Assembly (NCBI GenBank): GCA_944332185.1
Contig: CALVJJ010000004.1
Location: forward strand, 5,768 to 69,767
Direction of reading: 5' to 3'
Length of the DNA: 64,000 bases
Origin: an uncultured Clostridia bacterium
GTDB taxonomy: Bacteria > Bacillota > Clostridia > Christensenellales > UBA1242
In this document: in pieces, positions 13,587 through 64,000 of the stretch
Position numbering within the stretch: position 1 is the stretch's first letter
Layout: each line of letters starts with the position of its first letter
Notes under the pieces: generated by a model
Database searches by the model: none
What the model was told of the DNA's origin: nothing
What the model saw: only the letters and a program-made list of their open reading frames with translations
Made by a program: the position numbers and the translations under genes

Positions 13587-13652
13587 ATGGTTAAAAAATT
13601 AACACTTTTGATGTCTATTTTCTTAAGTACAATATGCTTACTTGCTGGATGT
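13587..13652 (+). other. lipoprotein signal peptide and lipobox (LLAG-C22) of giant protein 1
   Basis: A basic n-region (KK), a hydrophobic core, and the lipobox L-A-G-C followed by GNPY. Confidence 0.8.
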
Positions 13653-16600
13653 GGGAATCCATATGCAAGAATGAGTTTGGATATTAGTGAAAAAGAAATT
13701 GTATTGTACATCGATCGTAAGGAAGATGGACAGATTGAGACAACTAGCCAAACCATCGATATTACTGTCAAGGGAGCAAAAAAAGGTGTTAGTACAGACA
13801 TTGTTGTGGAAAACTCTATTGAAAATATTGTAAGTATTACCACGCAAAAACAGGACAACACTACAAGCGTTACTTTTACCCCAAGCAGTCAATATATTGG
13901 AGGTAGTGCTGATCTTGTTGTTCGTACAAAAGAAGGGAATATTAGCGATGTCTTACACGTTACGGTGTTTGATAAAGTAAAAGACATTGCTTTTTCTCCT
14001 ATTTCGTATGCTGTAAGTGTGGGAGGAACAGTCAATTTAGCATCTTATCTTACCTATCAACCAAGTGGGACCAATCAAAAAGATGTTCTGTATTCTATTG
14101 CACAATTTGAGCAAAATCCAGCCTTACACACCTACCTATCTATCAGCGATACTGGAGTCATTAGTGCCGATGAGAATATTCTTAAGGAAGCTCAAGATAT
14201 GCTTTCTTATGATGCTGACAAAGGGCTTTATTACGTTACTGTGCTTGTTACCAGTCAATATGATGAAACCATTACCTGTGAGCAGAATGAGTATATCATC
14301 AATACGATCAAAGCACAAGACGTTGTTGTAAAATCGTTTAGTGACCAAGCAGAAGTGGTATTGACAGGTACACTCCAAGATCTAGATCTAACTTATGGTA
14401 CAGAACAATATACGTTAGAGAATGTGCCAACCTATCAAGTGGTACTAGCAAGCAATATCAATACACAAATGGAATATTTGTATTCTCGAACGATAGAATT
14501 TGTGCTTAGTGAAGAATCAGCAAAGATTGATTCTCTATATAGAATGTCTTTAGTGCAACAGAAATATTTGCAAAATGATGATTCTTTTATTAAGGTGACA
14601 GAACTGGCAAGGAATACCACACCTAATGAAGAATATGAGTATCATACATATCGTATTGACCAAATTAAAAATGGCCATGACACTTTACTATTTAAAATTG
14701 ATTATATAACGTTTGAAGGAATGCTGACCACTTATGTTGCTTTAGATGTGACGGTACAAAATATTGCAACAGATATACAAGCAAGTGTAAAAGGCGAAAG
14801 CATTAGTACCATTCACGACAATCCAAATTTGGCAGGATATCGTACCATCAACGTACTCAATATGCTAGGTGACAATCTTTACCAAACAACGAATGTCAAC
14901 ATTGTCACGAATTATGATAAAACTAATAAAAATATACCTCTGTATTTTAATTTGGTAGCAACAGAAGAAGTTACGAATGATGTTTTGAACTTGGTAAAAA
15001 GTAAAATTTTTATTTGTGACAAAAATGGAAATCAAATTCCACTCGATGGCACAGGATATATCAACAATGGCGACTCTTTCTATATTTTCCACGAATTAAG
15101 TGCCAGCGATGTCCAAACAGTAAGAGACAAATTTGCTTTAGTAGTCAAGACTGTCTATGACCTTAACCCTGTTCAAGGCGAGGAAATGAATTTCCCTCAC
15201 CAAGTAGAACAAACTTTCCCTTTGACCATTCATACCAATGTGAGCAAAGAAGAGATTGAGGTAAGAGAAGAATTGCTTGTCAGCCTTGCATCTTATGAAG
15301 AATTGATATTATTGGACGCAGGAATTGGGGTATATACTTCCAACTTTACCATTACTTCTGATCAAAGAAATACAAAAGTAGAAAAAATTGCAAGTCAAGA
15401 AGGCCTTATAGAGTCTAGAGTATTGGTAGATGACAAAGTCTTATTCTATGTTTATCAAAAAGATGGTAGTGTGGGAGAAAACAACTACATTACTGTCGTA
15501 GCCAATCGGGATATGTACTCTGGACAAACGTATTTGATCTTAAATGATGATGTACATAATTGGCAATTTAGAGTGAAAGTGATTGTGTATGCTCCTCTCA
15601 TGTACGGAGAACTTGAAGAAAAAACGTATTTTGCTAGCTCAATACCAAATGAAGATTATTATAAAGGGCAATGGATTGCTGTTGAGAAGGAAAATATCAA
15701 CATTACCTTTACAGCTGAAGATACCAGAACGTATTCTTCTATTACATCTTTAAAACTTGCTACGACATCTGCAAGAGACAAAAATACCATACAAGAATAT
15801 GTACCAATCGAAGTATACAATTTGGTGAAAGTAGGAGAGCAAATAGAAACCATCAATCTGCTATCCATGGCAACAGTTAGTTATGATCGCTCTTACATGT
15901 ATTATGAAGAAGGTAGAATTTATCCTTTTAACAAACAATATACGAACGAAGAAAAACCATTGGTGCTATCTTTTACAGTAAAAGGGTATGATAGCAATGG
16001 ACAAGAAATTGTCTTAACGTATTCCATTGATATTCTCATTGTCGATATTGTACAATCTTTTGATGTGACAACGACCAAAGATGTTCTTTATGAAAATAGT
16101 AGTCTAGGTGCATTTGATAAAGCATACAGTCAAGATACGATACAACTGATTTGCTATCCACATTTTGTGACGGGTATGACACAAGTATTTGCCTATCAAG
16201 ATGCAGTTGTCCGTTCCTTTGTAGTAGGGGGCACACGTGTAGATATTACCGTATCTGATCTTATGACACTAGATCCAAATACTGGACTATTAACAGTGGA
16301 TTATACAAAGACTGCGTATGGCAAATCAAAAGTAGAGCAATTACTCACTTTATTTGGTTCGGAAAATAATGTCATTCAAAATATTTACCAATCACCAATT
16401 TCTGTGAAAATTGAAGGGTTTATCAAACAAGATTCTTTAGATCAACTCTATGCATCTTCTTATATTACTTTGGATTATGCTACAAAAGTGGATACCATTA
16501 TTGTTTCTGGTATTGATGAACAAGGCGTGTATCTAGAGATGGTAGATGGCAATGCAAGTTCGACCTATGCAAGCAAAACCATTAGTTTTTCTGTGATGCC

Positions 16601-19600
16601 AACTAGTGCACTCAATAAAAATTTGAGAATTGTTGTAGCAGAAGGGACAGATATTATTCGTTTTGCAGATGGGCAAGTGGATCAAAATGGTCGTATTCAA
16701 AGTGTAGGGAATACTTTGACTTTCTATCCTGTCAAAGCAGGACTGATTGAATTAAAAATTGGTGCAGAAGATAGTTTTGAAGCTAGTTCTTCTGTTGTGG
16801 GAAGATATGAACCTAGTACATATATTACCATTCGTGTAAAGGTGGCAGATGGTAGTAAAGCCTATCCATTTGAAATTGCCAATACACAAGACTTTTTCAA
16901 TATTGCCAATGGCTATAAAATGGTTAGTGATGTTTTGACGAATGAGTATCATTATATGCTAGCCAAGAATATTAACCTTGCAGGACAAGTCTTTACACAA
17001 CATAGTTTGTTTGGTGGAGTGTTCAATGGTTCTTTGACTGGTCTTATGCAATATACGGAAGATAGCGCAGTACAACGATCTATCTATGGCTATAAAGTAG
17101 TATCAGATACACAACAAACAAGACCATATTACGGTATGTTTGAACAAGTAGGAATAGATGGAATACTAGATCACATTGTTCTTACACAAACTGATGTACA
17201 ATACAAAACAGAACAAGCAGAAACACTCTATGCTGGTATCTTAGTTGGAAAACTAGATGGTAAAATCACACAAAGTTATGTGAGTGGAAAACTATTCGTT
17301 GAAAACACAACAGATAAAGACACCTTTGTTGGTGGTGTTGTGGGACTACATAGTGGATACTCTGCTGGAGATAGTGTAGATCAATCAACACAAAGTAACA
17401 ATACCAATTATAGTGTATCGATAGCAGTCACAGCACCAAAAGCGTATGTAGGTGGTTGGGCTGGTAGTGTACAAGGACAAGAAGAAAGCACGCACCTTTC
17501 TATGATAGAAGGAGTGAATGGTTTTGCTAGTATTGTAGTCAATCCTGTCAAAGACACAACCTCTATGAGTATGGCTGGTGGTTTAGCTGGGGTGGTACTT
17601 GATGCCACAATCGGTAATGCCATCATACAACCAGTGATCCAAGCTGATGTTGTAGGAGGAATGGCTGGAGCTACTTACAATACCCAAATGGACCATATTA
17701 CGGTAGAACTTTTGGATATGGCAGATACCAATGCTACGTATGGGCTCTACGGGCGTAAAGTGACTGGGGGCATGATAGGATTGATGGACGCTTCTACTAT
17801 AACCTTTAGTTATGTAAGAAGTTATGCAAAAACCAATCAAATAGAACAAAATGGTCAAACCGTATCGTATATAGGCGATCTAGTCCTAGATGTCGATGGA
17901 CAATATCTTGGTGGACTTGTTGGAAGTCATGAAGATGCACAAAACTGGGCAGATCAATACAACTTCACATTGAGCACAAAAAATGTGATCACCAATATTC
18001 AACAATCTTATGTAGATGTATCTATTAGGGTATATGCTACCAACGATCCAAAAGTAGGTAGTCTATTAGGATCTAGCTACTATTATGTAGATGAATCTTA
18101 TACAGAAAATAATACATTCTTGCAATACAACTATGCAAAAATTACCACTGTAGAAGGTGTAGATGTAGACAATTTAACTTTTGTGGGAAATTATAAAACA
18201 ACCAATCAAATGGTAACCATTCACAAAATGAAGATTGTAGACACAAGTGTGGTGGTGGAAACACAACTAACCATTGATGTCATCAGTACAGATGGAAATA
18301 ATACCATTCTTACTGGACAACAAGTCACAGGATATACACTGCCAGATACTTTTGCAGATTCTGTCTATAATGTAGCAAGTGGACTAGTAGAATATTATGG
18401 AGCAAGTGAAAAATTAAATGATGTAAGACAAGTTACGGGTAGATTGACACAAGAACAAGCTTACATTCAAAAAGGTAGTTTGACAGGCGAAGATACAGAT
18501 AGTTGGTATATTCGTATGCAAAATTTGGGCAACAGCGAATTAGGCTATTACCTTTACGAAAAAGATAATACGTATTTTGCAATTCCTAGTGTAGTAACGA
18601 TTCAAGATGCTTTGTATCAAATTACCTTAGATACTAGTTATGAGCCAGTAGATGTACCACTCTATGCTTATGTAGCAGAAGATGTAGAAGGATCAGCACA
18701 ATACGTAGATGGTATGCATACTATGTATCAATACACAAAACAAAATAATACGACCATCGTACTTGATGCAGAAGGACTCATGATGACAGAGATGGGAATC
18801 CCATCATCTATGGATAGTGTTTGGAACACAAATAGTGCATCTAGAGTGCTTGCTTACCGAGAAAATGTATTAGATAGTGATACCCAAACTATTGATTGGA
18901 CTCTTCTTAGTCAATATATCTTCTATCAAAATAACAATGTATCTAGCGGCTATATCTTAAATGATGATTTGCCAGTGTTAGTAGACCAAACCAATCAAAA
19001 ACTTTTGTACAATATTTTGCCAACTTCTTTAATCATACAAGTAAGTGAAACAGTTACAGATATTACAAGTAATCATTACTTTATAAAAGATGATGATACA
19101 GCGATTATGTATTATAATGTCCTTATCGATGGGCCAGAACTAGACCATAATAATGTGTATTATGTGGGATTACAACAGCTAGCCAATCAAACTGTGGCAA
19201 CATACACATTAGATGTCAACCAAGATTTTGGGGGAGATAATCGTGTCAGTGTTATGAGTAGCAATCCTAATGTTGTTCAAGTACAGGAAGGGACCAATGC
19301 TATTGTACTTTGTGGTATAGGACAAAGTGAGATTACGGTAAGATCTTTATTAGATGCTTCAGTGTATGACACCTTTACCATTGTTACGACATACGGTATC
19401 CGTGGAATACATTTGACAGATGCAGAAGGGAATGTTATTACCAATCAAGATACAATGGTGCAATACATTAGTGAATACTATAGTTATTATCATGTAGCAA
19501 CCACCAACCAAGTACAACAAAATGGCATTGTCAGTTATTACCAAACAGAACAAAATTTCCAATTACAAGTGACAATTACAGGGTATACGAATACAGATAC

Positions 19601-22600
19601 ACAAAGTCCTGCTATGGATTTTGGAGGCAAAAAGATCACTGTACAAGATGGTGTCATTCTAGTCGATGGACAAAATCAAAACACTTTCCTTTTATCTAAT
19701 GTCGACCAAATCGCTATCAAAGGTATGCAAATTGGACAATTTAGTTTTAGCATAACACCTTTGATCTTAGTAAATGGAAAATCATATACCCTAACAGGTG
19801 TGACACAATCTTATGCAATAGATATTGCCAATCAAGCAACTTCTATTGTGTTTGATAAAGGTGCTACAAGTACGACATTTGCCATTGCGGGAAGTGGTAG
19901 CAGTAGTGAACTAGGTGTGTACTTGACTACCTATCATGAAGCTGATGAATTGAGCATGAATGTATATGATTATCAAGGAAATGTCTTAAATAGCGAACCT
20001 ATTGCCTTATCTACTTTCTCGAGTGGAACGTATCGATACTTAAAAATCAACCAAATCAACCAAGATGTACTCTCTACAGATAGTAGCAGTGAGATAGAAA
20101 AATATCATCAATTACAACTGTTATTCGATCAAACAGCATATTTAAGTAATATTTTAAGTACGTTACCAGAAGATAGTCTTAATCATCAACAATATGTGTT
20201 GGAGTTTGTGTGTGAAAGTAATACCGATCTTATTGGCACTTTCCATGTCAATATGCAAGCATTGAGTGTGAGTTCGATTGCCAATTACTATTACCCATCT
20301 GCACAACAAAAAGATCAGCAATACTACCCACAAGAAAATGCGAGTACCTATCTTGTACCGGGTAGAATTGGTATGTTTAAAACCAATGTTTTCCCAATGC
20401 TTAATAATGTCGATTACTTTACAATGACAGTGGATCCAGCATACCGACAATATATTCGATTGACACAATATTATGCCAATATGAATACAGATGGCACAGC
20501 CATTGCGAATTACACAGCTTATGAAAATACAGCCTATTTGCCAGAATTTGCTGGAATTCAATTAGAAAAATTGAGCCAAAAGACTTATTCAGCAAATAGT
20601 TTTGCCTATAGTTATACCGGTGATTATTATATCGGTGTGACAACTAGTTCAGACTGTCCAAGTGGAGGACAAGTTGTCTTTACCTTGACAGGCTACCGAT
20701 ATACAGCAGATGGCAGTGTGGAAATCGTGACTGATGCGACAACAACCATTTCCTTAGATGTTGTGGCTTTGCCAAAAGTTGATCTTACCATTGGAGGAGA
20801 AAAAGAAAGTATTCTTGCTAATGGTTATGAAAAACAAATGAATGTATCTATTAGTAATTATGATCTAATCAATGATGGACCAGTAGAATTCGTGATTGAA
20901 GTAGAAGAAGGTGGTATTTGGACCAGTGAAGGTGTTCAATCCAAATATATGGTAACAGAATCCTATCTTTTCTCTATTCTTGATGGAAAAGTAGGAGATA
21001 GAGTACGTGTAACTGCCCATATTGAAAAGATGTTGAATGGTGTGATGGAAGAATCGAATAGTTCTGTCATATTCAATGTAGTGGCATACGAAATTACCAA
21101 TATCTTTATTCAATCTTATCCTAGTGATCAAATCGAATTACTCAATGGGACACAAAATTATTTACTGGGAGATTTTGCTTATAGAGGAGAAACCAATCCA
21201 ACCATTGTATCGAATTTACGACTTTTAAGATATACTTGGAACGGTATTTTATCTTCTAGTACAGGATCTAGAAACAATCCATTCCAATATTACGATAATG
21301 GATACGTAAGTGTGGCAACACAACAAGAAAATTATTTGTATAATGGATCTATTCGTTTCATGAGATCTAATACCAATAATTATCTATTTGTGGAGACAGC
21401 AAAAGTTTCTACGCCATTGCAATTCCGTATCGTATTATCTTACTATTATGTCAATGGTGTTCCTACCTTGTATACCAATCAAGTAGGAGTAGATCAATAC
21501 TATCAACTTTATTATGATTTTACCATTACGATCAAAGACAATAGCAGTGCAGACAAGCCATTCCCAATCTATGAGGAAGAAGACTTCTATGCTTTGGAAG
21601 GTGTCACAGAAGGACATTATATCTTAATGAACAATTTGGAACTAACAGGACATACTCCTTTTGCTCTACAAGTAGATTCCTTGGATGGTAATAATCATAA
21701 AATTACGTTAAATGGATTTGATCTTAACACCTATCAATCTGGATCTACAGCCAACGTAGGATTATTCCAAAGTATTGATAGTGAAACGGTACTGAAAAAT
21801 TTGATTATTGATATTCACCCATTGATGACCAATCTAACAACCATACAACAAGTTTTAGGAAAAGTAAGTACCACACCAGAACAATATGAGAATGCTTTAA
21901 GTCAAGTAAAATTGAATTTTAGTGGAATTCAAACAGTAAATTTTGGTTTGGTTGCAGTTACCAACAATGGAACCATTACCAATGTAAATGTTGTGAATAT
22001 TAGTGAAGAAACAGACAAAGAATATTTGTTTGTCTATACATCGCAAGATTACTTAAGTGGGGTACGTACTAATGCAAGTGTGGCTGGATTAGTCTATTCC
22101 AATGGTTCTAATGGTGTGATTACCAATAGTTTTGTGGGTATGAACTATAGTACCAAAAATGATGCAGACACATCGATTCAAAATACCATTACTGTCAATA
22201 TGGCTCAATATGGAGAAATTACGAATGATACTTCTAGCACTGCCACAGGATCTGATACAAATGGTCAAATTGTAGAAGAAAAACAAAAAATTCGTCCTTT
22301 TGTATTAGCTGGTGGAAAAGAGTTAAGTGGATTGGTAATAGACAACTTGGGTACCATAGCCAGTACGTATGTATATGGGGTCGGGCTTTTGAATTTGGCA
22401 AGCTTATTTAATGAAGTGTATACAGCGGGGGTAGTACTCTATAATAGAGGTACAGTATTTGCAAGTTTTGTAGAAGGTATGTCTACTCTAACTAGTACCA
22501 CTGAAACTATATCTACTTTACCTAGTACCAATATATATCGTGCTAATAAAGACTATATTATAGAAAGTACTGGTATGTCTGGTGGATTCGTATATCAAAA

Positions 22601-30890: not shown

Positions 30891-30925
30891 AAAAAATAGA
30901 AGGCCTTATGGTCTTCTATTTTTTA
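30891..30925 (+). terminator. rho-independent terminator of giant gene 1
   Basis: AATAGAAGGCC-ttat-GGTCTTCTATT (10 bp, one G.U pair) followed by TTTTTAT, directly after the TAA stop. Confidence 0.85.
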
Positions 30926-32131: not shown

Positions 32132-32257
32132 AATCACTCCTTATTATCATTGTTTTCTTTATAGTATGATACCATAGTTTTGAATAATTACCAATTAGTT
32201 TCAACTTTTTTAAAAAAAATAAAAAAATTTGTTTTGTGTCTTATTACATACGAAAAT

Positions 32258-32296
32258 AAAAAAGAACCTTATTTCATAAGAAACAAGGTTTTTATA
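32258..32296. terminator. terminator downstream of the MFS gene
   Basis: AACCTT-a-TTTC-ataa-GAAA-c-AAGGTT, with T-runs on both strands. Confidence 0.6.
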
Positions 32297-32306
32297 AGAT
32301 TGTGCC

Positions 32307-33776: not shown

Positions 33777-33804
33777 ATCGACCTCATTGGTAATCTATTT
33801 ATAC

Positions 33805-33833
33805 ATCATACCATACTTTTGAGTTTTTTGCAA
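33805..33833 (-). promoter_or_regulatory. sigma-A promoter of the small-protein/MFS operon
   Basis: The minus strand has TTGCAA (33828-33833), a 17-nt spacer and an extended -10 TGgTATGAT (-10 hexamer at 33805-33810). Confidence 0.6.
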
Positions 33834-33890
33834 AAAATTTTTATTCTTATCGGGAAAAACCTATAAAAATTCATTTTGATTGTAGATAAT

Positions 33891-34520: not shown

Positions 34521-34533
34521 AATGTTCTCCTTT

Positions 34534-42947: not shown

Positions 42948-42949
42948 GT

Positions 42950-43975: not shown

Positions 43976-43986
43976 GGAGGTAAGAT

Positions 43987-46637: not shown

Positions 46638-46674
46638 TATTTTGTTTGACAATTTTAGACAAAAATTTTATACT
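46638..46674 (+). promoter_or_regulatory. promoter of giant gene 2 (homologous to 13383-13420)
   Basis: TTGACA (46646-46651), 17-nt spacer, TATACT (46669-46674). The upstream tattttgtttgacaa string and the GACAAAAA element are the same as for giant gene 1. Confidence 0.6.
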
Positions 46675-46786: not shown

Positions 46787-46861
46787 ATGGAAAAATTCAA
46801 ATCTAAAATTAGTCTTATTTCTATGATGTTTTTATGGGCAATCCTTCTGCTTGCAGGGTGT
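46787..46861 (+). other. lipoprotein signal peptide and lipobox (LLAG-C25) of giant protein 2
   Basis: A basic n-region (KFKSK), a hydrophobic core, and LLAGC followed by GNPY, identical to the giant 1 cleavage region. Confidence 0.8.
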
Positions 46862-55800: not shown

Positions 55801-58800
55801 CAATAAAGGTGGCACGATTGAAGATCAAGTCACAGATGATCCATTCGTAGATGCTATCAGTATGACACAATTTGGAAGATATTCTTCCTTTACAGGTTTT
55901 GCATTTAATGGGGATTATCAAGAAAATACAGCAGAAAAAGTAGCAAGTGCAGTTTGGTTTATTCCAGAAATGAACGAATATGATAATTGTTTTAGTGAAG
56001 ATGCAACGGAAAATACAGAAGATTTGTATTTCAGTATTATGCAAAACAATTACTATTTCCCAGCTAGACCACAACTAGTCAGCGCTAATATCTTGACACG
56101 TTCTGTTTCTTATTTAGCAGGATCAAAAACTGACGAAGAGAATAATGTGATTTATAGTTATCAAAATGTGGCTGATGCAGAAGGTTCTATTACCAATCCA
56201 TATTTGGTCTATGATGCACAATTATTTGATACACGTATGCACGATGTTCAAACATTGCGACAAGAAAATACTTTGAATACTCAAGAAGGGAATAATACCT
56301 ATAATATTCGTTTAATACGTGATTTTAGTTATGCAGACAAATTAGATAGAAAAGCCACCACCTATGATGTCCTCTTTAGTGGGATCCTAGATGGAAATGG
56401 TATGGAAGTGCAAGATTTGACCATAACGGCCGCTAAAGATAGTGATACGACTGCAGATATTGTACAAGCTGGTTGGTTCGGTTCTATCGATCAAGGAACA
56501 GTCAAAAACTTGTTCATTGAAGTGGAAGAAGTTAGTGCTACCGGTGTACCTTTTGTAGGGGTATTATCTGGGGTGATTCATGATGCCAATGTCTTTAATG
56601 TGACAATCACACCAGCGAATGAAGATTCTTATATTAGTGGAAGCAATATCATCGGTGGCCTAGCAGGACTTATCTATGGAAAGTCCCAAATCATTGGTAT
56701 TACTTCTAATGTCAATATTACCTCTTATTTTAAGAGCGGATCTAATGAATTCAATTTTGAAAATTTGTATGGAGACAAAGGCACATTTGCCATTCTCAAT
56801 ATCAATGAAACAAAAGATGATTTTTCTGATCGTTATACCAATTACAACAAAGTATCTTATGTTGGTGGTATTGTGGGTGTCATGGATGCTGAACTTAACG
56901 AAATTGATGCCTATTCTGTGGCACAGGCACAGACCAGCCAAGCAAGAAGATTGTCTGTGGGTGATACGATCCAGTTAGCAGGCGAAATTGTAGGTGGTAT
57001 TATGGGATACATGGGTAAGAATGTCGTTAGTGTCAATGATGAGATTCAGTTATCCGAAGATGCAACCATGAGTATCATCGCTTCTCGTGTTGCAGGTGGT
57101 ATTATTGGAGAAAATCATGGTAGCTTACAAAGATCCTTTGTATCACATATTACGACTTTACAAAATAGTATTGATGAAGCACAAAAATTAGGTACTTATG
57201 ATACGAATAATTATCGTAATTTGTTTGGTACCGATCAAGATGGAAAAGGTACAAGCAGAAATGCACATTATATTGGTGGACTTGTAGGACTCAATATCAA
57301 TGGTGTCATTGAGAATAGTTATAACAAAGTACCAGTATATTCCTTAAATGCCTTGGCAAGTGGTGGACTTATTGGACTAAGTTTTGGTGGAAGTATTGTA
57401 TCTAGTTATACCACAGCTACTGTACGATCTTATGAAAGTGCTGGTGGACTCATTGGTAGAATGGGCGAATGGTATACTACGACAGCAGAAGATGTGACGA
57501 CAGTAGATAGTGAAAAAATACAATCTACTTATTACATCAAATTGCCAGCATCTTATTATACTATGGTGGATTTACCTACGATATTTGATGGTGGTGTGGC
57601 TGCAACAGTATGGAATACAGAAGATTTGCATGCAAAATTAAGAGCCAATGGCACACTCAATACATACTATTATCTGGGTGCTTATGTAGGCAAGTTAGAT
57701 TCACCTATCAGTAATTTAGAGAACAATGATGCTTCTATTATGGGAACGTCTAGTTATAGTAGAGCAAAACAAGAAGTCAATTATGCAACCAAAGTGGTTC
57801 TTGACTATAAGACGAATATTGGTACAGACGCTTCCATGATTCTAACAGAAACTGGTAGTGGGAATTTAGTCAAAGCTACAGATGGTACCTATGTTCCATA
57901 TATCACAGGAGGAGTATATTTACAGAATCCAACGAATGGAAAAGAAACTTATTATTTGTATAGAGATATGGGATATTTCTGTTCTTTGCGTACACAAGAA
58001 GAAATTATAGCTAGACGATTACTCTGGGAGAATGATACTGTTACATGGAATGGTAAGATATTTGCTGGAACAGAAGATCCAATTGTTGACAATGGACAGT
58101 TCAAACATGCAGACAAATTAAAATCTTCCACAACATCTATCTATAATTCCTTTATGGAAATGTATTGGAATGGCTTTGATATCAACGATGTCACTTTAGA
58201 TCCAATCGATGAAAGTTATCTATATCCAGCATTAAAGGCTGAAACATACGATTTGATTGTGTATGTGACAACTGTTGAAGATTTGAAAAAGATGGACGTC
58301 TATCCAGATGCTACATTTATTCTAATGAATGATATTGATTTGGGTGATGAACCTTGGGTGCCTCTCTGTCAAGATACCCCATTCAATGGTACATTACGAA
58401 GCAACGAAGGCAATGTGTATACCATTCACAATCTGTATTTTACAGCAGATTCTATCGGTATGACACAAAGCAATCCTATCAATTCTAATATTGGACTCAT
58501 TGCACAAGCAAAACGTGCAAAATTCGAAAACTTTAATTTAACTTTAAAAGACACCAATATTACAGAAGATAATGCTGTCAGTGTGAATGCAGGATATGGT
58601 TTGAATTATGGTAATCTAGTTGGAGTAGTGGTGGACAATAAGAAAACAACCACCTTTACGAATATTCAAATTGGAGCAGAACAAGAAAACAATGTATCCT
58701 TAACGTTAAAAAATATCAACACCTATGGTGGTGTTGTCGGTGCAGGAACCAACTTTACTTTAAGTAAGGTTACAGTTGGACCTTATCAGGTAGGTAGTAT

Positions 58801-61800
58801 TTCACATTCTGGCATAAGTGCTACTATACAAAGTTTAGTAAAAGATACTCAATTTGGGAATAATGCACAACAACATGGTATTGGTGGACTCATTGGATTG
58901 TATATTCAAGAAGGATATGAACCACTTTCTTTGCTAAGTACTGCAGTTTCTCATCATACTTGGGACATAGCAACAAGTGATGAAGGTAAAAACCATACTT
59001 CCATTGCTATGGGTGGAGCCATTGGATCTATCGTAGATTACAATTTAACCACCACAAGTGCAACCTATCAATTAGATGTATCTGTGAGCAACATATCTAT
59101 CAAAGATAACAGCACACAAGAAAACAATCAATATGCAATGGGTGGTGTCATTGGTAGTCTGACCGGGAATACGACTCTCAATACAAGTGAAGATACTTCC
59201 ATTACCACTTGGCAAATAGATGCTATTACCTTAGAAAATGTTAATACTTCTACTAATACTACTTCTTATATTGGTGGACTTGTGGGATATCAAAGTACAC
59301 ATAACAGTGCTAACAGCAATGATATTGTGTATAAGATACCATCTTATACGAAAGACAATGATATCACAATGAATGTGTTGGGTACATCTGTTGGTGGATT
59401 ATTTGGATATCTTAGTGGAGCATCTATCATAAGCAGTAGTGATGCTGTTACCACAATTCCTGAAAACTTCATGAATATTACGATAAAAGGGAAGATTGGG
59501 GATTTGGGTATATTAGCAGGAACATTTGTAAATGCTCAAGATATACAGAATATAAGTATTACACCTCAAACATTTAACTATGCGGGATTGTATCAAATTA
59601 CTAATTTTGGAACAGTCGCTGGTTCTATGACCGGAGGCACCATTGATGGTGTAACTGTACAAGATTACCAAAAAGCGCTCGTTGAAAACCAAGAAACGAA
59701 CCAACGATTATCCATCAATACCCTTGGTGGTATTGTGGGCAACAGTAATGGAACAATGATTCAAAATTGTTCTGTAACAGATGATGCTAACAAACGTGTT
59801 GACGCTAACAAACGTATTTATGCTAACACTCATGGTGGAATTGCTGGACAAAGTGTTTTAAGTGGTAGTACATGGTCTAATCTACAAGTAAACATTGCTG
59901 GGTTATCAGGAAATATTGCTGGTGGTATTGTAGGAAAAGTAGATAATACCATACAAGAAACATCACAATTAAATACCCGTACTACTGGATCCATTAGCCA
60001 AGTATTGACTAAAGGAAATATTTATCAATATTATGCATCAGCAGATACCATTTCTTGGTATACAAATGGGTATATGGGTGGTATCATTGGTCATCTATCT
60101 GCAAGTATTACCCTAGATCAAGCAGTCAGTGAAATGAATCTTATTTTAGATCGTACGAGCAAATATGTTGGTGGATTGGTTGGATACAATGCAGGAAGTA
60201 TTACTAATAGTTATAGCCAAGGATATCTCGATATCTCTGAAAGTTCCAAAGGTAATGAGAGCGCAACCGAGAATAATCCTGTATACTTAGGTGGATTGGT
60301 TGGGTACAATGCAGGAAGCATAGAAGATACCTATACTATTAGTCGTTATGTCTATGGATCGAATGTCACGATGTACTATGATACCACCAAAGGTGGACTT
60401 GTGGGAGACATGGCAACTAATGCTTCTATTAGTCGTAGTTATTACAGTACAGATATTACTCCTTATAGTAATGATTGGGGAAAAGGTCTCTATTTAGATG
60501 AAATATTGGGTAAATCATTTACAGAAACTACTTCAATAGAAAATACTTTGTGGGCATCAGATGGTATTACAGATACAACACCTCAACTAGCATGGACTAA
60601 AGATAAAAATATCACGACTTCTATCATATCTTCATCAGCAGCAACAACAGATACTATTAGTAATATTGTATACGATGTTGATGGATCGATCACTGTACAA
60701 GCAGTTGGGAAAACAGGATTCATCATTGCTCCTAGTGTAACAGTTGGTGGAAATAATGATGGTATGATCTTTGGTGGTAAGAATAAAGGTACATCATTAT
60801 CTATCACAGGGGATCAAAATGGAATTGTCGATTACTTTGTGGTATATAGTGAAGAATTTATTATTGACGGTAATCAAAAGGGATTACTTAACCGAGTCAG
60901 TTATACCGGAAGTAACAATATTGCAGATACTCTTGGCGGTATCTTACGCAATGTGGAGATCTTTACAACAAGTAATCTTGATTCGATATTAACTAACCAA
61001 GTCACATGGATAGATAGTATTGTGGCACAACAAGATGTAGACAATGCTACTGTGACGAATATGACCTTCTATCGAACTAAGAGTAAAACTGTCATAAGTC
61101 ATAATCCAGCTGATTATGTAGATCTTGGTGGATCTACAGATCTATGGATCATGATTCGTACATCCAATCAAAAAGTAGAAGACAATGATACCACTAGAAG
61201 AAAACTCAATTATGGATTCCCAGTCTTACGTTGGTCATTGCAAGATAGTTATACTATGGCTACAACTGATCAATTAAGTGATAAGTATTATTGGAAGTCT
61301 AATGATGACTTGGTCACAGATTTACAAAGTAATACATGGAATACCTACGATATTGATCTAGGCAACAAACTATGGACTCCATTAGCAACAACTACAACTA
61401 CACAATTAAGTGGGAATTTGCAAGGTGTAGCAGATCAAGGTGTGAGTACAACTATGTTAGACACCTTTGGAAAGAACTACACAGCAGATCGAGGACAGAC
61501 ACTGAATCGTATCTACAATATGACCATTTATTATCAAAACAAGATGATGGCAGAAACTGATATGACTAATCTTACGAATATTGGTTTATTCCAAACTTTG
61601 CCTAGTGTCAGTAATATTAGAATGGAGAATGCTCTCATCTTTGTACCAGATGGTACGGGTACAGCATTGAATGTTGGGACGGTAGCAGGGAAAGTTACAA
61701 GTTCTGCAACTAGACTTGCTTCTGTCAATAGTTCTATCTATGTAGGCAATGATCAATCTACTGTCGGTGGATTGATTGGATCTATGGAGGACAGTGGCAC

Positions 61801-64000
61801 TATCACCATGGCATATACTATTTATACTGAACATGGAATGAATGTCTCTGAAAACACTCAAGATACTTACACATACACTTCTGGCATTAGTACAAAGTCT
61901 ACAAAAGGAGAAATTGTAGGTAAGGGTAATGGTTCACAACTTTATACTCCATTATCTTCTACTGGTAATAAGTTGAGTGGTGGTGGAACTATCAGTAGTG
62001 CATACTATAAAGAAGATCAACTAAAAACTTCTGTTCTAGAAGGATTCAATTGGAATATTTGGCAACGACAAAATAATGCAGAACATTATTACAACTTGCC
62101 ATATATTGATGGAGATTATCCATATTGGATTGATGGTGTGCGCAAGGTTGACAATGCTTACTACTACAATGAAAACAATACAGGTATTACCACTTCTACA
62201 GAAGCATATACTGTCCATACATCACAACAACTAGCAGTCATTGCTTATATTACGAATGTTGAACAAAGGAATGTAAACGTGACTTTGGGTGCCAATATTG
62301 ATCTTGGTGGAAAACTTTGGACGCCAATCGGCATAGAAAGTAACGCATACCAAGGGACATTTGATGGTGGTTCTCATACTATATCTAATATGGTTATCAC
62401 GAGAGTTCATGCAACAAAAGATGATCAAGATTATGCTGGACTCTTTGGGTATATGAGTGGTGCAACGATCAAGAATGTAAATATAGAGAATAGTAATATC
62501 TTCTTTACGGATTCTGCCAAAATTGTTGATACTGTTGGATCCATCTCAGGTTATACCACGAATTCATCTATTACCAATGTCCATGTGAACAATGTCGTCT
62601 TATACGTCAATGGACAGACTGTGGGTGGATTGGTAGGATCTGCTAATGCAACTACAATTTCACGAAGTAGCGTGACAGGTTCGACCATGAGTGCCAATGA
62701 TATCATGGGAGGTCTTATTGGTGAAAGTAATGGTGGAACAGTAGAGACTTCCTATATTACAGGTAGTACGATGACACAAGTAGCAAGTAGTGTGACAGGT
62801 TCGACATCATCTACCCAAGTAGCTTACCTATCTAGTCTATCCAATACCAATGCAACCACGAGATCTAATGTAGCGTCACCATACCAAGGTGGACTAATTG
62901 GAATATCTACGAATACCAATATTTTAGAGGTTGTGGCAGATACTACTAAGATTAGTAATCATGCTGATTCTTATAAAAACGTAGGAGAACTATTTGGATC
63001 TATTACAGTCAGTAATGATACTCCTACCATGACCAATGGTGTACATAATGTATTAGCGTACGATGTGACCAATGGAACAAATAATCCAATAGAAAAATTA
63101 TTTGGAAATGATCTAACTTACCATAACAATATGAGTATGATATTCACAAATAGGAAAACTGATTTAGATACAACGTACTATATTGGTGGATTACCTAATA
63201 TAGAAGATGCAATTATGACAAACAATCCATGGTGGAATGGTCGAATCAATGATAATAATAGGACAGCCAATATCGATAGACCATATTATGTACCGGGGAA
63301 TGCAACGAACAATACAGATATTACACTTGCAGATTTTATGGCTACGATGAGTTTACGATACTATCCAAATGGTAGTATTCCAACGACAAAGTATACCATT
63401 ACGCAAGTAGGTAGTAGTTATACAACAATCTATTATGATGATTTTACCATTCAAAAATCTGCTGGAACTACGTATTATCCTATTGCCAATACTTCTCTTT
63501 ATGGACCAGGTAAAGATAGTTATTATCAATTAGAAATTGCAACGAATGGTATCTCTTACTTATTTGAGACAATGACTAATATTACAGAGTTTAAGAACTT
63601 TAATATCTCTACTGACGTACCTATTGCTAATTCTATTGATAATAGTAAAATTGGAGATAAAGTTTCCAGTGAATTTAGCAATCTAGTTTTAACATCTAGT
63701 GCACAAGGTGGTGCACTTGCAGTAGAATATAAAGGGAATGGAACATTATATTCTTCTATAGGCAAAGAAGATGCTTTTATTACGGTGAATGCGAATGAAA
63801 TTTCCGGTGGTGGCTTATGTGATTATATAAAAAATGCAACTGTGCAATATGTCACTATTACAGGAAGTATTGTAGGAGCATTTAATCAAGAAGCTGTCGG
63901 TGGCGTTGTTGGAAAGATGGTATCTGGTGAGATTAGTAATGTCACTGTTACGGCAACTGTTGATGGAAATGGTGCTCCACAAGTTGGTGGTGTGATCGGT
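46787..64000 (+). CDS. second giant surface lipoprotein, 3'-truncated by the window (at least 5,738 codons), paralogue of 13587-30890
   Basis: Not in the supplied track. The ATG at 46787 follows AGGTGA. The signal is MEKFKSKISLISMMFLWAILLLAG|CGNPY. I translated frame 2 by hand from 46787 to about 54700 without meeting a stop and spot-checked 59786-59829 and 63980-64000 (..QVGGVIG). The track lists no frame-2 ORF ending anywhere in 46348-64000, and every antisense ORF there is 100 aa or shorter. The product has the same Big_2-like and GLUG content as giant 1. Confidence 0.93.
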   Translation, partial: MEKFKSKISLISMMFLWAILLLAGCGNPYRNMKLEIDSKIAVENGQYTFDVDLENDEPTPFTFSVNVAGAKKGVNTNVIVSSSQTEYVTVDQTVVNGSNTDVRLTAYRVGQSLITVKSVEGNLTETIVVRVNKPVEDIVVDTTSLYIERGVAIDMREVVSYLPTDTNRKDLILQVGQVDIPAEENQILIDGNMLTVDQNSTVQSFELSIRSLYNEDIESKQITIHVVDVIQNDAIVIKYEKEGEFVELEKNNNGQYVLSMAQNSENIGDFSKNIAFFVRTPEEDILLDPATYQLGIINQQGVFTDHYTDSYVDVTKMDTTFQIMEQGMGSTVLTFGYQHKLLDTNSIKKVTLQVLVEYYPESIVVTNQNVQLDENHGMTIFDEDRPYGDGSNAIRVSIRTLNDTVLTRSPFYIHLEGEQIADYKVSLYNRNGIVDPTAMYTEQDGPFYIVHNYPSDVEIGTFSLVITSAVSGVDLTKTIPLQFVRGQMDIATNQSIYYLNVDGTAEDGTNIQNITFTGINATELWESFQIIGMQDSLVTWEWLADHSGLLLTANLEGRTGKFDVRFVAPNGNVCVATIVVFHELQDASLYVGNAVPSNIAIASVETVTEDVIANAPTYQFLSGTQVPLNFILNGTVQSLFEGTRVQVQLSGRGVTFRADNQSFTVTSSAVETVVTLTLQGYDNTGQSYATVKYFVFKVSPVLPITQVTIDQPTGSSSFQIYSRYELDSLEDDTLKKATIRYRVYPTTVKYMDPTWEVFGTQGNTIAQLTYNENEQSSTSSVQISYTLGQNNEKLYKTYAIRYGDHTIFVELNLKDKSYAVVYANIINADIVTFHIRVKLMQEYQDTNMVTTYLYNEEAYATIQVQKPTKVESIRFENLQKENDEYVYYFDIRDMQLNGNQFVGNNTASIRTNIYPIDSVNTNLVIETKVWESVDQGRTYQDTGSSAIAYLNYTVQNVDGKNYQKDLQIELLQLLNQEGDDGYITRYIEVIIYAQDSKNGSSYTIRNQFKIFLLDGSESNPFRVRTAEDVDDMRNGLNSHYVLTNNIDLSYYIATRMNGSWSPIGDKNTPFTGSLRSQNTDEFYGKYTISGLSFVENSNTNNMLVNDVENHKEYFIGLFGYLGDGASLRSFDVVVKQFDVVQTKGTVGDMLYFGVLAGATAKNTTIAGVGVYDNRGATVNPTGNGVQFVSTSSITAYIGGMVGFNQGRMTSATDTTHGVEYRLQVNLVMSVLDNSTTGASTVVYVGGMVGANSGTIQNSENNTLLFGVDTYDVVVDINPTNNQVSNRNSVFGGVAGKNTGTIQQLQVLAHIKAYNQVGGAVGSQESGVLHSLTVAPYIRGNESIGGLIGVISGYSSIDDTHIEFYGYQYANSIENSSIVGKDKVGGLIGTTTTRSSFTIKNTSIYSYTKATVEDYLPTATSAFWGDVVAQNTDAYLSLGIGYQGSSNAQNIVVTWNNIFVSASMQNFASTNSHALLPNGAMVVYNTSLHVTIPTEIDSIETFAFGTAVTNSYAVINESFVGYDTTTSYTNYQEFLTQMSTMIYTFDQAKGNAEKGLNFDSQDPTYTQAQKTQYENAVFYAHEDYTITIGDVTYPYLINLAGTDDRGTPYVTDLTTQTLQLVGSVQLLVNLPPLGVTCEAKVTVVGMVRLADSNYDQNGNLIGDVDGSLTRALEEENLKPLEEILSITAIPAFLTNSKVQVVANNRKVAEIVSYNGASYLKLNGIGEVTLTITSLYDSTITASATLQVIDQVLGFGLYEDDAYADSIVLSNDDAFQSQSTLTMEKGTTLSIYSKMMQDWNGYQQTMDSSSIGVRYRITAIENEKHEDVAIDEQYLTINGKTGTMWESALGQMTMKGLQSGTVTLEACPYYRSGDTTIYYEEYAVQFDLDIINGTQDVFVEGQTTSIRFEPSNTTQRFAVSIETDKDNEQLVLLLTDSYNMHYTFVLDTKNWKQQNTIQLGYMLLSCEFSKNDNIMTFAFYVRADMSKLYQQIDEIGETQVLDSLNTAVSVQFDFYVLGQESIDILPQATSTTDNKYTLDKTGFFQISTASRSEVISKANSNVINYPNLIITMNTEELKHGAMNAYHYPNNLEKQIEATTEETKEESYVFNGEEIPYDTILSGKNGLLKIDYTPIYANVDYVEITSTAINGQYIRFDQMIKTYTLSTVGDTSTINIQYVRDSESADPIENGITLGKRSFAYNGKTMFNGSFYVRTTIPSSIQAGNVYTITIRAYKYLPTGESVLVDTMTKQLDVLMPPSVSISCSTQAIARGMTQNFTLKINGQDDTTTLSFEQSTLKKGNVSYSYGNYFTIQSMGNDQYQVWVSSAVPQGAELNIVYKVSKRINGVNIEETNLQQPLTLTVADFVVNAIGVENVYNGRFVGLLNQFYTLRIVLTDVTYNSRTLGVAQAITNLENTLSTLAYTTQNTTLTSTWWTQEGNDLTQIKTQSYAGFIASTSKQEDNSVSIRVKNTVLTTNTLLKARTYLYYGDNGIVAVPYNQIGLPAYNGLCQNLEYDFTFDCYQYTDEENPTPIYNEEQFIDMVDNGVGDYRLMADLTLSNWTPRNTYHSTSDAVSGQTVTGVISSFDGNGYVIKIESFNTQAIQETGIAGLFATVHEDTLLKNITVLLEPTGDAQRVEVDQEGNGLASSENSVDEFDIEIDLTGNDTVYYGTIAGINNGMITNCAVTYNTEAYQDQRINELLQGTEVSPINVLSFEEYELYTTVGDQLKDTDGNYRFYQAVEKVSNFHNTIYDTVIQNNNVIKNGRTLTSIWIESDLGISAYVGGLVGQNNGYITNSRVEHISIKGSGYVAGLVAENTNKISSSYYKDGNIKNNFNSTTNAGTGGLVAINSGYIGYSYVEGRNPYQMMIGQELEGDFETVANRSVTSVDLTKFTGDNYESLLELGMYAVSMRNTYSAINTNTHAGGFVYDNTGTITNSYANILVNSTGDSAGFVYQNGENGSISEVYSLSSVAINKRNASQFSGRTTSGNWLNQGTIEHSVYLKVEGLDNKGGTIEDQVTDDPFVDAISMTQFGRYSSFTGFAFNGDYQENTAEKVASAVWFIPEMNEYDNCFSEDATENTEDLYFSIMQNNYYFPARPQLVSANILTRSVSYLAGSKTDEENNVIYSYQNVADAEGSITNPYLVYDAQLFDTRMHDVQTLRQENTLNTQEGNNTYNIRLIRDFSYADKLDRKATTYDVLFSGILDGNGMEVQDLTITAAKDSDTTADIVQAGWFGSIDQGTVKNLFIEVEEVSATGVPFVGVLSGVIHDANVFNVTITPANEDSYISGSNIIGGLAGLIYGKSQIIGITSNVNITSYFKSGSNEFNFENLYGDKGTFAILNINETKDDFSDRYTNYNKVSYVGGIVGVMDAELNEIDAYSVAQAQTSQARRLSVGDTIQLAGEIVGGIMGYMGKNVVSVNDEIQLSEDATMSIIASRVAGGIIGENHGSLQRSFVSHITTLQNSIDEAQKLGTYDTNNYRNLFGTDQDGKGTSRNAHYIGGLVGLNINGVIENSYNKVPVYSLNALASGGLIGLSFGGSIVSSYTTATVRSYESAGGLIGRMGEWYTTTAEDVTTVDSEKIQSTYYIKLPASYYTMVDLPTIFDGGVAATVWNTEDLHAKLRANGTLNTYYYLGAYVGKLDSPISNLENNDASIMGTSSYSRAKQEVNYATKVVLDYKTNIGTDASMILTETGSGNLVKATDGTYVPYITGGVYLQNPTNGKETYYLYRDMGYFCSLRTQEEIIARRLLWENDTVTWNGKIFAGTEDPIVDNGQFKHADKLKSSTTSIYNSFMEMYWNGFDINDVTLDPIDESYLYPALKAETYDLIVYVTTVEDLKKMDVYPDATFILMNDIDLGDEPWVPLCQDTPFNGTLRSNEGNVYTIHNLYFTADSIGMTQSNPINSNIGLIAQAKRAKFENFNLTLKDTNITEDNAVSVNAGYGLNYGNLVGVVVDNKKTTTFTNIQIGAEQENNVSLTLKNINTYGGVVGAGTNFTLSKVTVGPYQVGSISHSGISATIQSLVKDTQFGNNAQQHGIGGLIGLYIQEGYEPLSLLSTAVSHHTWDIATSDEGKNHTSIAMGGAIGSIVDYNLTTTSATYQLDVSVSNISIKDNSTQENNQYAMGGVIGSLTGNTTLNTSEDTSITTWQIDAITLENVNTSTNTTSYIGGLVGYQSTHNSANSNDIVYKIPSYTKDNDITMNVLGTSVGGLFGYLSGASIISSSDAVTTIPENFMNITIKGKIGDLGILAGTFVNAQDIQNISITPQTFNYAGLYQITNFGTVAGSMTGGTIDGVTVQDYQKALVENQETNQRLSINTLGGIVGNSNGTMIQNCSVTDDANKRVDANKRIYANTHGGIAGQSVLSGSTWSNLQVNIAGLSGNIAGGIVGKVDNTIQETSQLNTRTTGSISQVLTKGNIYQYYASADTISWYTNGYMGGIIGHLSASITLDQAVSEMNLILDRTSKYVGGLVGYNAGSITNSYSQGYLDISESSKGNESATENNPVYLGGLVGYNAGSIEDTYTISRYVYGSNVTMYYDTTKGGLVGDMATNASISRSYYSTDITPYSNDWGKGLYLDEILGKSFTETTSIENTLWASDGITDTTPQLAWTKDKNITTSIISSSAATTDTISNIVYDVDGSITVQAVGKTGFIIAPSVTVGGNNDGMIFGGKNKGTSLSITGDQNGIVDYFVVYSEEFIIDGNQKGLLNRVSYTGSNNIADTLGGILRNVEIFTTSNLDSILTNQVTWIDSIVAQQDVDNATVTNMTFYRTKSKTVISHNPADYVDLGGSTDLWIMIRTSNQKVEDNDTTRRKLNYGFPVLRWSLQDSYTMATTDQLSDKYYWKSNDDLVTDLQSNTWNTYDIDLGNKLWTPLATTTTTQLSGNLQGVADQGVSTTMLDTFGKNYTADRGQTLNRIYNMTIYYQNKMMAETDMTNLTNIGLFQTLPSVSNIRMENALIFVPDGTGTALNVGTVAGKVTSSATRLASVNSSIYVGNDQSTVGGLIGSMEDSGTITMAYTIYTEHGMNVSENTQDTYTYTSGISTKSTKGEIVGKGNGSQLYTPLSSTGNKLSGGGTISSAYYKEDQLKTSVLEGFNWNIWQRQNNAEHYYNLPYIDGDYPYWIDGVRKVDNAYYYNENNTGITTSTEAYTVHTSQQLAVIAYITNVEQRNVNVTLGANIDLGGKLWTPIGIESNAYQGTFDGGSHTISNMVITRVHATKDDQDYAGLFGYMSGATIKNVNIENSNIFFTDSAKIVDTVGSISGYTTNSSITNVHVNNVVLYVNGQTVGGLVGSANATTISRSSVTGSTMSANDIMGGLIGESNGGTVETSYITGSTMTQVASSVTGSTSSTQVAYLSSLSNTNATTRSNVASPYQGGLIGISTNTNILEVVADTTKISNHADSYKNVGELFGSITVSNDTPTMTNGVHNVLAYDVTNGTNNPIEKLFGNDLTYHNNMSMIFTNRKTDLDTTYYIGGLPNIEDAIMTNNPWWNGRINDNNRTANIDRPYYVPGNATNNTDITLADFMATMSLRYYPNGSIPTTKYTITQVGSSYTTIYYDDFTIQKSAGTTYYPIANTSLYGPGKDSYYQLEIATNGISYLFETMTNITEFKNFNISTDVPIANSIDNSKIGDKVSSEFSNLVLTSSAQGGALAVEYKGNGTLYSSIGKEDAFITVNANEISGGGLCDYIKNATVQYVTITGSIVGAFNQEAVGGVVGKMVSGEISNVTVTATVDGNGAPQVGGVIG
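59786..59829 (+). repeat. in-frame 18-bp tandem repeat (about 2.4 units) in giant gene 2
   Basis: gctaacaaacgtgttgac / gctaacaaacgtatttat / gctaacac..., encoding ANKRVD-ANKRIY-ANT. Confidence 0.85.
60170..60321 (+). repeat. 32-nt direct repeat exactly 120 bp apart in giant gene 2
   Basis: ggtggattggttggatacaatgcaggaagtat (60170-60201) versus ggtggattggttgggtacaatgcaggaagcat (60290-60321), 30/32 identical. Both encode GGLVGYNAGSI. Confidence 0.85.

Follow-up and report, generated by a model that had tools for sequence, protein, structure and literature searches.

The stretch of DNA analysed here, 64,000 nucleotides (nt) from contig CALVJJ010000004.1 of an uncultured Clostridia bacterium (GenBank assembly GCA_944332185.1; hereafter the window), is dominated by two co-oriented giant genes, A and B. 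Their products are paralogues that start with a lipobox signal peptide and carry arrays of GLUG repeats, and comparison with relatives places the duplication before the divergence of related species. We consider it reasonably probable that A and B are anciently duplicated, non-redundant, lipid-anchored giant surface fibres or adhesins. The translation of gene A is identical to database protein P0001, and its mature product has a computed mass of ~630 kDa and a pI of 4.5. Gene B stays open to the end of the window; on the source contig, a metagenome scaffold of 212 kb (ENA ERZ28614362), it is intact and encodes 6427 amino acids (aa), with about the last 689 codons beyond the window. A preliminary description of the window had reported two co-oriented giant genes that fill ~54% of it around a ~16-kb block of essential genes. 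Its coordinates and sizes proved exact: the two genes sum to 34,518 nt (53.9% of the window), they are separated by a spacer of 15,896 nt, and the intervening genes include all those that it listed, beside an MFS transporter, a GT4 glycosyltransferase, an MBL-fold hydrolase, a T-box leader and small ORFs of unknown function. The same layout was found in a second strain from another sample (ENA ERZ28614538 scaffold_281), with genes of 5766 aa and 6425 aa. An assembly duplication of one locus was rejected on the grounds of the 21% identity between the two proteins and the occurrence of the pair in two independent assemblies. Likewise, the intact gene calls of 6427 aa and 6425 aa for B led us to reject a pseudogene copy.

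Paralogy, family and synteny of the giant genes

In blastp, A and B gave a single colinear alignment that extends from residues 786-5418 of A and 666-5375 of B (E 4e-116, 21% identity), while their N-terminal 250 aa were 29% identical (E 2e-25). When the proteins were compared in chunks of 300 aa, the significant non-GLUG chunks matched the colinear chunk of the other protein best, and not chunks of their own protein. GLUG-rich chunks often matched other GLUG chunks, and many chunks had no match. Since the chunk matches are colinear, they point to whole-gene paralogy and not to the independent growth of a shared repeat. Within the core, identity amounted to 63-71% between orthologues (63-65% for A and its orthologue in a sliding window) versus 25-33% between A and B.

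The coding DNA of A and B is without detectable similarity, the promoter block described below being the sole exception between the two genes. The best blastn match had an E-value of 5e-4, and the longest exact word common to both was 16 nt, which lies within the range of 14-18 nt given by a codon-shuffle null. The preliminary description had called the genes clearly homologous, by their signal peptides, GAKKGV blocks, module heads and GLUG arrays, and strongly diverged in DNA with short shared strings only; the colinear motifs and alignment and the chance-level word length bear out both statements. It had further suggested that the layout itself stabilises the pair, as recombination between the direct repeats would delete essential genes. 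This suggestion had to be abandoned: coding sequences that share no stretch above chance length are not recombination substrates. Because A and B share no DNA that could recombine, no selection on the layout need be invoked, and ordinary synteny accounts for its conservation.

An exhaustive HMMER search of 1.84 billion representative proteins, for which the A and B N-termini were combined in a profile, returned 69 matches, which include ~30 family clusters (50% identity). Full-length representatives were A, P0002 (5941 aa) and P0003 (6519 aa), to which cluster member P0079 (6158 aa) was added via the truncated representative P0006. About 25 further matches were N-terminal fragments, and the remainder were unrelated proteins with Big_2 immunoglobulin (Ig) repeats. 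A scan of genome contigs with the A/B N-terminal alignment picked up signal-peptide patterns only and confirmed nothing, and a scan of metagenome contigs with A-type N-termini yielded one marginal match of 64 residues. The orthologues fall into types. P0002 is A-type (46-50% identical to A end to end), as are proteins from two contigs, L087 (37%) and L088. P0003 is B-type (48-52% identical to B), as are the giants of contigs L085 and L086 (52-53%), and P0079, with 30% identity to B, represents a third type, C. From the identity matrix (A with its orthologue A2 49.5%, B with B2 52.1%, B with C 30%, A with B 22%) we derived the grouping ((A,A2),((B,B2),C)). Every A-type versus B-type comparison gave ~22% while orthologues exist within each type, and the A/B split therefore predates the divergence of the host species. 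This agrees with the earlier proposal of an old duplication of which both copies were kept intact under selection, as do the full-length genes in different strains. The genes would belong to a family of giant surface lipoproteins that is rare and unannotated and occurs in an uncultured low-GC lineage of gut Clostridia, probably of the order Christensenellales.

Comparison with related genomes, which the preliminary description had called for, revealed both types at the expected places beside the same block. The PheT protein of the window organism was at best 62-71% identical to those of uncultured Clostridia and Christensenellales metagenome-assembled genomes (MAGs), and the species is not among the GTDB representatives. 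In L085 and L086 (PheT 65-66% identical), a block of MFS, rubrerythrin, efp, GT4, ABC-F, MBL, pheS and pheT genes leads up to a B-type giant, whose gene call has 6559 aa in one of the two contigs and at least 4742 aa in the other. A more distant MAG (L011, PheT 55%) has a C-type giant directly after pheT. On L087 and L088, which were found through DegV homologues, an A-type giant is convergent with degV and adjoins the MFS and rubrerythrin genes; one contig with degV and an A-type giant belongs to MAG GCA_045538425.1. Taken together, the gene orders suggest that the arrangement of A, housekeeping block and B is ancestral to a clade, without being universal. The titles of the relatives' MAGs point to the animal gut as the habitat.

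Predicted anchors, GLUG modules and type-specific ends

Both proteins begin with a signal peptide that ends in a lipobox ([LVI][ASTVI][GAS]C), which predicts lipidation of the cysteine; the window itself contains neither lgt nor lsp. In all 30 N-terminal family representatives inspected, the signal peptide ends in Cys, for the most part within a GCG-type context, and 19 of these 30 showed the strict lipobox pattern. The GAKKGV block occurs once per protein, at aa 63-68 of A and from aa 69 of B. Just behind it, positions ~80-190 of the A/B N-terminal profile matched repeated units in P0005, P0008, P0018 and P0020 (E 1e-9 to 1e-32) that Pfam names Big_2. Although neither A nor B gave a direct Pfam match to Big_2 (PF02368), this profile match identifies a putative, divergent Big_2-like Ig domain near the predicted membrane anchor of both proteins. 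The signal peptide was the only membrane segment that stood out, no dedicated transmembrane search having been made, and a secA-like domain was not found.

The repeated parts of the proteins are GLUG modules. Motifs of the form GG[LIVF][VIAL]G, ~30 aa apart, number 21 in A and 27 in B, and a hidden Markov model (HMM) of the repeat placed four or five arrays per protein at matching positions in A and B. The Pfam gathering threshold for GLUG (PF07581, 20.5 bits) was exceeded by pieces of A (25.9 and 23.9 bits), by the C-terminal half of B (39.8 bits) and by pieces of B (44.4 and 27.5 bits). When A was scanned as pieces of 3000 aa at E <= 0.01 there was no Pfam match. Besides the GLUG units, few internal repeats were found in either protein. 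The C-terminal regions of the two types are unrelated, the best match of the A-type end to B-type or C-type proteins having an E-value of ~1. Both proteins are rich in Thr, Ser, Asn and Gly, and extracellular giant proteins have been reported to show this bias in composition (Reva and Tummler 2008, as cited in the excerpted text of PMC12863079).

Two known classes were considered and rejected. A sortase-anchored giant adhesin of the Ebh or SRRP (serine-rich repeat protein) class should end in an LPXTG sorting signal, but LPxTG is absent from the complete protein A, from the part of B in the window, and from P0003 and P0079, and the one such motif in P0002 is internal (aa 4833) and not C-terminal. 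An M26 IgA1 protease (ZmpA / IgA1 protease) was dismissed because the HExxH motif is absent from all five full-length proteins (A, B, P0002, P0003 and P0079) and there was no match to Peptidase_M26_C. Peptidase_M26_N was seen in a single piece of B, where its 21.7 bits fell short of the cut-off of 27.7.

Promoters, strain variation and the surrounding locus

Upstream of both giant genes lies a 26-nt promoter block, TTTTGTTTGACAAnTTnnGACAAAAA, which is identical at 25 of 26 positions between A and B and has no other match in the window, where none would be expected by chance. It also precedes the B-type and C-type orthologues (at 12145 in L085, 12642 in L086 and 12624 in L011), with the consensus TTTGACAAnTTnnnACAAAAAnTTTTATACT. 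By eye, the intergenic DNA around the block in these relatives otherwise looks unconserved, and PheT of these species is only 55-66% identical. The block could serve a dedicated regulator as its binding site; alternatively, it may be a strong promoter under constraint. In each case the promoter follows the terminator of the upstream gene. Each giant gene would thus form its own transcription unit, driven by a strong sigma-A-type promoter of a design conserved in the clade, with a predicted 5' untranslated region (UTR) of some 100-170 nt and, in the case of A at least, a putative terminator of its own. The source annotation lists an open reading frame (ORF) of 51 aa at 46504-46659 that overlaps the promoter block of B and is probably spurious.

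Neither promoter is flanked by convincing inverton-like inverted repeats, and homopolymer or short-unit tracts were not found in the promoters or in the 5' coding regions of A and B; a phase-variation switch was therefore rejected. The shared, conserved promoter and the lack of switch elements argue for common regulation and not for alternation, and A and B are probably co-expressed.

Synonymous sites were saturated both between A and B and between orthologues of ~50% identity, where dN/dS could not be estimated, and strains were compared instead. The 90% cluster of A has ten entries, among them A itself and eight full-length variants that are 98.6-99.98% identical to A, so that nine of the ten are full length (8 of 9 distinct assembled versions, a split version being counted as two entries). 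Between strains, the 3' half of A showed 40 synonymous (Sd) and 59 nonsynonymous (Nd) differences, or an omega of 0.42, and a binomial test, in which the neutral nonsynonymous fraction was set at 0.78 by rough estimate, gave p = 4e-5. The housekeeping neighbours in the block had omega values of 0-0.18. A is thus under purifying selection, though far less constrained than its neighbours. The differences between the window and the second strain (L090/L093) were mosaic: none from 21.3 to 24.0 kb, ~1% from 24.0 to 46.7 kb (24000-46701), and a single one over the following 9.5 kb of B. Such a pattern resembles a recombination tract of ~22.7 kb between strains whose ends lie within A and in the 5' UTR of B. 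At the amino-acid level, variation among strains is concentrated at aa 3952-3996 of A and in its C-terminal quarter (aa 4500-5250). At the former, a hypervariable patch (25440-25574), the eight strain variants carry two haplotypes, which include small indels at aa 3967-4021; these haplotypes suggest recombination import or diversifying selection at a module head. Furthermore, a 42-nt unit stands twice in tandem at 24962-25046 (A aa ~3792-3820, 14 aa duplicated), exactly at the point where one assembly has A split into 3785 + 1958 aa. Either this assembly represents a genuine frameshift allele, or it contains an error at the repeat.

Patchy substitutions such as those at aa 3952-3996 and aa 4500-5250 are expected for exposed, selected surfaces. 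Together with the divergence of the two copies, which keep one architecture but differ in their distal ends, they would fit a scheme in which a single surface structure exists in two antigenic or functional variants, A and B, only one of which is expressed at a time so as to evade phage or host immunity. We nevertheless regard such alternation as very unlikely. Both genes have the same conserved promoter, inverted repeats and simple tracts that could serve as a switch were not found, and there is no common DNA to support an exchange of cassettes. In addition, an identity of ~22% speaks for ancient subfunctionalisation and not for a variation system. The preliminary description had left room for copies that are "non-redundant or alternately used". 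Of these, non-redundancy gains partial support from the unrelated C-terminal regions, while alternate use finds no support, given the shared promoter and the lack of switch elements.

Positions of the two giant genes, of their parts and of the block between them are collected in Table 1. A T-box leader (Rfam RF00230, 107.6 bits) lies at 42695-42906, upstream of pheS-pheT. The plsC-like acyltransferase gene (41794-42636), between the MBL hydrolase gene and pheS, is absent from the otherwise identical block of L085 and L086. Five small or medium ORFs in the block have no Pfam match on record (34743-35435, 35552-36493, 36513-36908, 37677-38063 and 33525-33776), and the two largest also have no NCBIfam match. 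As ORFs of similar size occur at equivalent positions in L085, L086 and L087, these are probably real genes of unknown function. Just upstream of A are two small genes, at 12607-12840 and 12956-13231, which by eye look like genes for an acyl carrier protein (ACP) and a SpoIIID-like transcription regulator, and at 11829-12446 there is a gene for a SpoIIQ-like M23 peptidase. The SpoIIID-like, SpoIIQ-like and ACP-like genes hint at a sporulation-related host background. Further upstream, a tRNA-Glu (anticodon CTC) is located on the minus strand at 9692-9766, between tyrS and an unannotated ORF of 471 aa.

Table 1. Coordinates of the giant genes A and B, their predicted regulatory and protein features, and the intervening block (nt positions in the window)
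Feature	Position	Strand	Details
Promoter of A	13385..13420	+	block TTTTGTTTGACAAATTATGACAAAAA (13385-13410); -35 TTGACA (13391-13396); -10 TACAAT ending 13420; 11/12 sigma-70-like
Gene A	13587..30890	+	giant lipoprotein (predicted); complete ORF, 17,304 nt, 5767 aa; ORF list, translation
Signal peptide of A	13587..13652	+	lipobox LLAG-C (ICLLAG before Cys22), then conserved GNPYxxMxL
Divergent Big_2-like Ig domain of A (putative)	13824..14156	+	~aa 80-190, just after GAKKGV block; profile match to Big_2 units elsewhere
GLUG array 1 of A	17241..17975	+	aa 1219-1463, 5 units; HMM from GG[LIV][VIA]G repeats; colinear with array 1 of B
Most conserved core of A	21384..24686	+	aa 2600-3700; DGNG module heads aa 2699, 3285; GLUG array 2 aa 3376-3666 (nt 23712-24584)
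GLUG array 3 of A	25815..26612	+	aa 4077-4342; HMM
GLUG array 4 of A	28122..29696	+	aa 4846-5370, 13 units; HMM and Pfam Glug 23.9 bits (cut-off 20.5)
A-type-specific C-terminal region	29907..30887	+	aa 5441-5767; 25-36% identity among A-type orthologues
Intrinsic-terminator-like hairpin	30891..30924	+	directly after the stop codon of A
Housekeeping block between A and B	31310..46347	mixed	degV(-), MFS(-), rubrerythrin(-), two unknown ORFs(+), efp(-), GT4(-), ABC-F(+), MBL hydrolase(+), plsC-like(+), T-box leader, pheS(+), pheT(+)
Promoter of B	46640..46674	+	block TTTTGTTTGACAATTTTAGACAAAAA (46640-46665); -35 at 46646-46651; -10 TATACT ending 46674; 11/12 sigma-70-like
Gene B	46787..64000	+	giant lipoprotein (predicted); open from ATG 46787 to window end; 17,214 nt, 5738 aa in window
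Signal peptide of B	46787..46861	+	lipobox LLAG-C (LLLAG before Cys25)
GLUG array 1 of B	50372..51004	+	aa 1196-1406; HMM
Conserved core of B	54167..57589	+	aa 2461-3601; DGNG heads aa 2582, 3201; GLUG array 2 aa 3358-3574
GLUG array 3 of B	58724..60460	+	aa 3980-4558, 13 units; HMM; Pfam Glug 44.4 and 27.5 bits in covering pieces
GLUG array 4 of B	61760..62956	+	aa 4992-5390; head YQGTFDGGSHTI at aa 5188; HMM
Further GLUG array of B, start	63896..64000	+	aa 5704 onwards, continues past window

Functional interpretation and closest known systems

If A and B are indeed lipid-anchored surface fibres or adhesins, they would be exported by Sec, receive a lipid on the lipobox cysteine (Cys22 in A, Cys25 in B) and remain tethered by their N-termini to the outside of the membrane. 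From this anchor a long, acidic chain, rich in Thr, Ser, Asn and Gly and mostly of beta structure, would extend outward. The chain would comprise a membrane-proximal Big_2-like Ig domain, four or five GLUG modules, long stretches without a known fold and, distally, the type-specific C-terminus. Because the promoters are the same and the distal ends differ, the two proteins would most likely be made together and do different jobs, for example bind different ligands on the surfaces of host, food particles or neighbouring cells; alternative versions of one structure seem unlikely.

The GLUG modules probably form right-handed beta-helices. An AlphaFold2 (AF2) model of the core of A, built from an alignment of five sequences, contained short regular strands in blocks with a predicted local distance difference test (pLDDT) score of 70-85, and Foldseek searches with this model returned right-handed beta-helix proteins as nearly all of the top matches. 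Among these were the IgA1 proteases 7uvl, 7uvk and 6xja, the adhesin PfbA, polysaccharide lyases, Ag43, an SRRP and tailspikes.

Beta-helices are, however, also the fold of polysaccharide lyases and hydrolases, so that an enzymatic role is possible for A and B. The proteins could then be surface-tethered enzymes, with their beta-helix modules acting as polysaccharide lyases, hydrolases or proteases on dietary or host glycans and with substrates that differ between the paralogues. The Foldseek matches of the core model, which include fucoidan lyase, pectate lyases, alginate lyase, GH55, GH110 and tailspike depolymerases, fit such a role, as do the animal-gut habitat, judged from relatives, and the weak match of one piece of B to the N-terminal region of M26 IgA1 proteases (21.7 bits versus a cut-off of 27.7). 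We still think it unlikely, since all fold matches had E >= 5e-3 on a model of pLDDT 51 and mirror the generic beta-helix fold, neither Pfam nor NCBIfam revealed a catalytic family, and the five full-length proteins contain no HExxH. To our knowledge, 5,700-6,500 aa is also far above the size of any known lyase.

The conservation of the locus could alternatively indicate a structural envelope component, such as an S-layer-like coat or a spacer without a specific ligand, with the paralogues kept for a heteromeric coat. The pair sits in a conserved chromosomal block and not on an island, the GC content of the giant genes is that of their surroundings, and their position is kept across species; moreover, the promoters are identical in design and the central core is 63-71% identical between orthologues. 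Nonetheless, we give this idea little credence, because the closest GTDB relatives have no giant gene at this position, which is therefore not a universal trait of the lineage, and because no SLH or other wall-binding domain was detected in the Pfam scans of A and B.

Several results also weigh against the interpretation of A and B as fibres or adhesins that we prefer. Pfam recognised GLUG only in A and B, and no known adhesin, lectin or enzyme domain; NCBIfam gave no match in 20 pieces of the two proteins. PDB sequences were searched with profiles of the core and of the N-terminus and with three long single segments, but nothing credible emerged, the two matches obtained being at chance level (E ~0.05-0.07). 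The core model had a mean pLDDT of 51 and its best Foldseek match an E-value of 5.5e-3, with TM-scores <= 0.3 and none of the matches significant; the structural evidence is therefore weak, and the fold search at most suggestive. The model of the C-terminal region of A failed (pLDDT 31). Genes of A-type and B-type in one genome were seen only in the window species (two strains), those of relatives lying on separate contigs. The only MAG that has both a contig with degV and an A-type giant and a contig with pheT is GCA_045538425.1, and its pheT contig ends before any giant gene. In the closest GTDB representatives with sequence downstream of pheT (L006-L010, PheT 62-63%), ordinary genes and no giant gene are found there, and the family is therefore patchy. 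Finally, one assembly has A split, as described above, and an omega of 0.42 shows fairly relaxed constraint on A. Weaker constraint than that of housekeeping genes is usual for exposed proteins.

Within these bounds, A and B are of a known general kind, that of giant surface proteins with predicted beta-helices, and GLUG-motif protein is the only family membership that holds. With the streptococcal and Gemella M26 IgA1 proteases (6xja, 7uvl, 7uvk), the top, non-significant fold matches of the core model, they share GLUG repeats and a head F-x-G-x-L-D-G-N-G-x-x-[IV] in front of GG[LIV][VIA]G rungs. In contrast to these proteases, A and B lack HExxH, the M26 catalytic domain, G5 domains and LPXTG; they are three to five times larger and have several separate GLUG modules and a lipobox anchor. 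Like PfbA of Streptococcus pneumoniae (4mr0) and the binding region of the SRRP of L. reuteri (5nxk), they are predicted to expose a right-handed beta-helix at the surface, the fold matches being not significant. Those two, however, have a single module of 300-450 aa and a C-terminal attachment to the wall by sortase, whereas A and B would have several modules, ~630-700 kDa and an N-terminal tether.

In concept, the closest analogues are the proteins Giant1-5 of Apilactobacillus kunkeei, which we compared by description. According to the excerpted text of PMC12863079, these are several paralogous genes of 3,000-8,000 codons that take up a large share of a region in a small Firmicute genome. 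Their products have signal peptides, predicted beta-solenoid domains and elongated shapes and are interpreted as acting in surface interactions, and strains have diverged by short recombination tracts. Giant paralogues, signal peptides, predicted beta structure and strain diversity driven by recombination would be common to both systems. The Giant1-5 genes, on the other hand, are consecutive, whereas A and B are parted by 15.9 kb of housekeeping genes. The same excerpts describe no lipobox anchoring and report the proteins in culture supernatant, in contrast to the lipobox of A and B, and the domain order also differs, A and B having type-specific C-termini and a scarcity of internal repeats beyond GLUG (PMC12863079). 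More generally, A and B resemble other bacterial giant genes in being very long single ORFs with surface or extracellular products and poor coverage by domain databases (Reva and Tummler 2008, as cited in PMC12863079; West-Roberts et al. 2023, bioRxiv 10.1101/2023.11.21.568195). At 5.8-6.4 thousand aa, they fall below the class that West-Roberts et al. call "large" (>10,000 aa; "giant" being >=30,000 aa; bioRxiv 10.1101/2023.11.21.568195).

A bolder and rather doubtful proposal is that A and B are obligatorily co-expressed subunits of an undescribed lipid-anchored giant beta-helix surface organelle. This would be a core trait, fixed in the chromosome, of one Christensenellales-like clade of uncultured gut Clostridia, driven by TTTGACAAnTTnnnACAAAAAnTTTTATACT through a specific regulator, with the two distal ends providing dual specificity. 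Were it true, the organelle would stand apart from sortase-dependent pili, SRRPs and S-layers as a new class of surface appendage in Gram-positive bacteria.

For work on such loci in general, the pair demonstrates that large direct "repeats" recognised at the protein level may share zero similarity in DNA, and arguments about recombination that are based on layout need a check at the DNA level first. About 90% of the sequence of the giant proteins has no match to any known domain, and the family is very rare and mostly unrecognisable by sequence. Since domain databases cover such proteins poorly, the annotation of giant genes needs structure prediction, and this family is suited to structure prediction with deeper alignments and to metaproteomics. 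It also poses the question of how a protein of >600 kDa is exported and retained by a single lipid anchor. Almost nothing is known of the surfaces of uncultured gut Clostridia. Two genes of 17-19 kb that have stayed intact and in place since before related species diverged point to a costly and evidently important surface structure in these bacteria.

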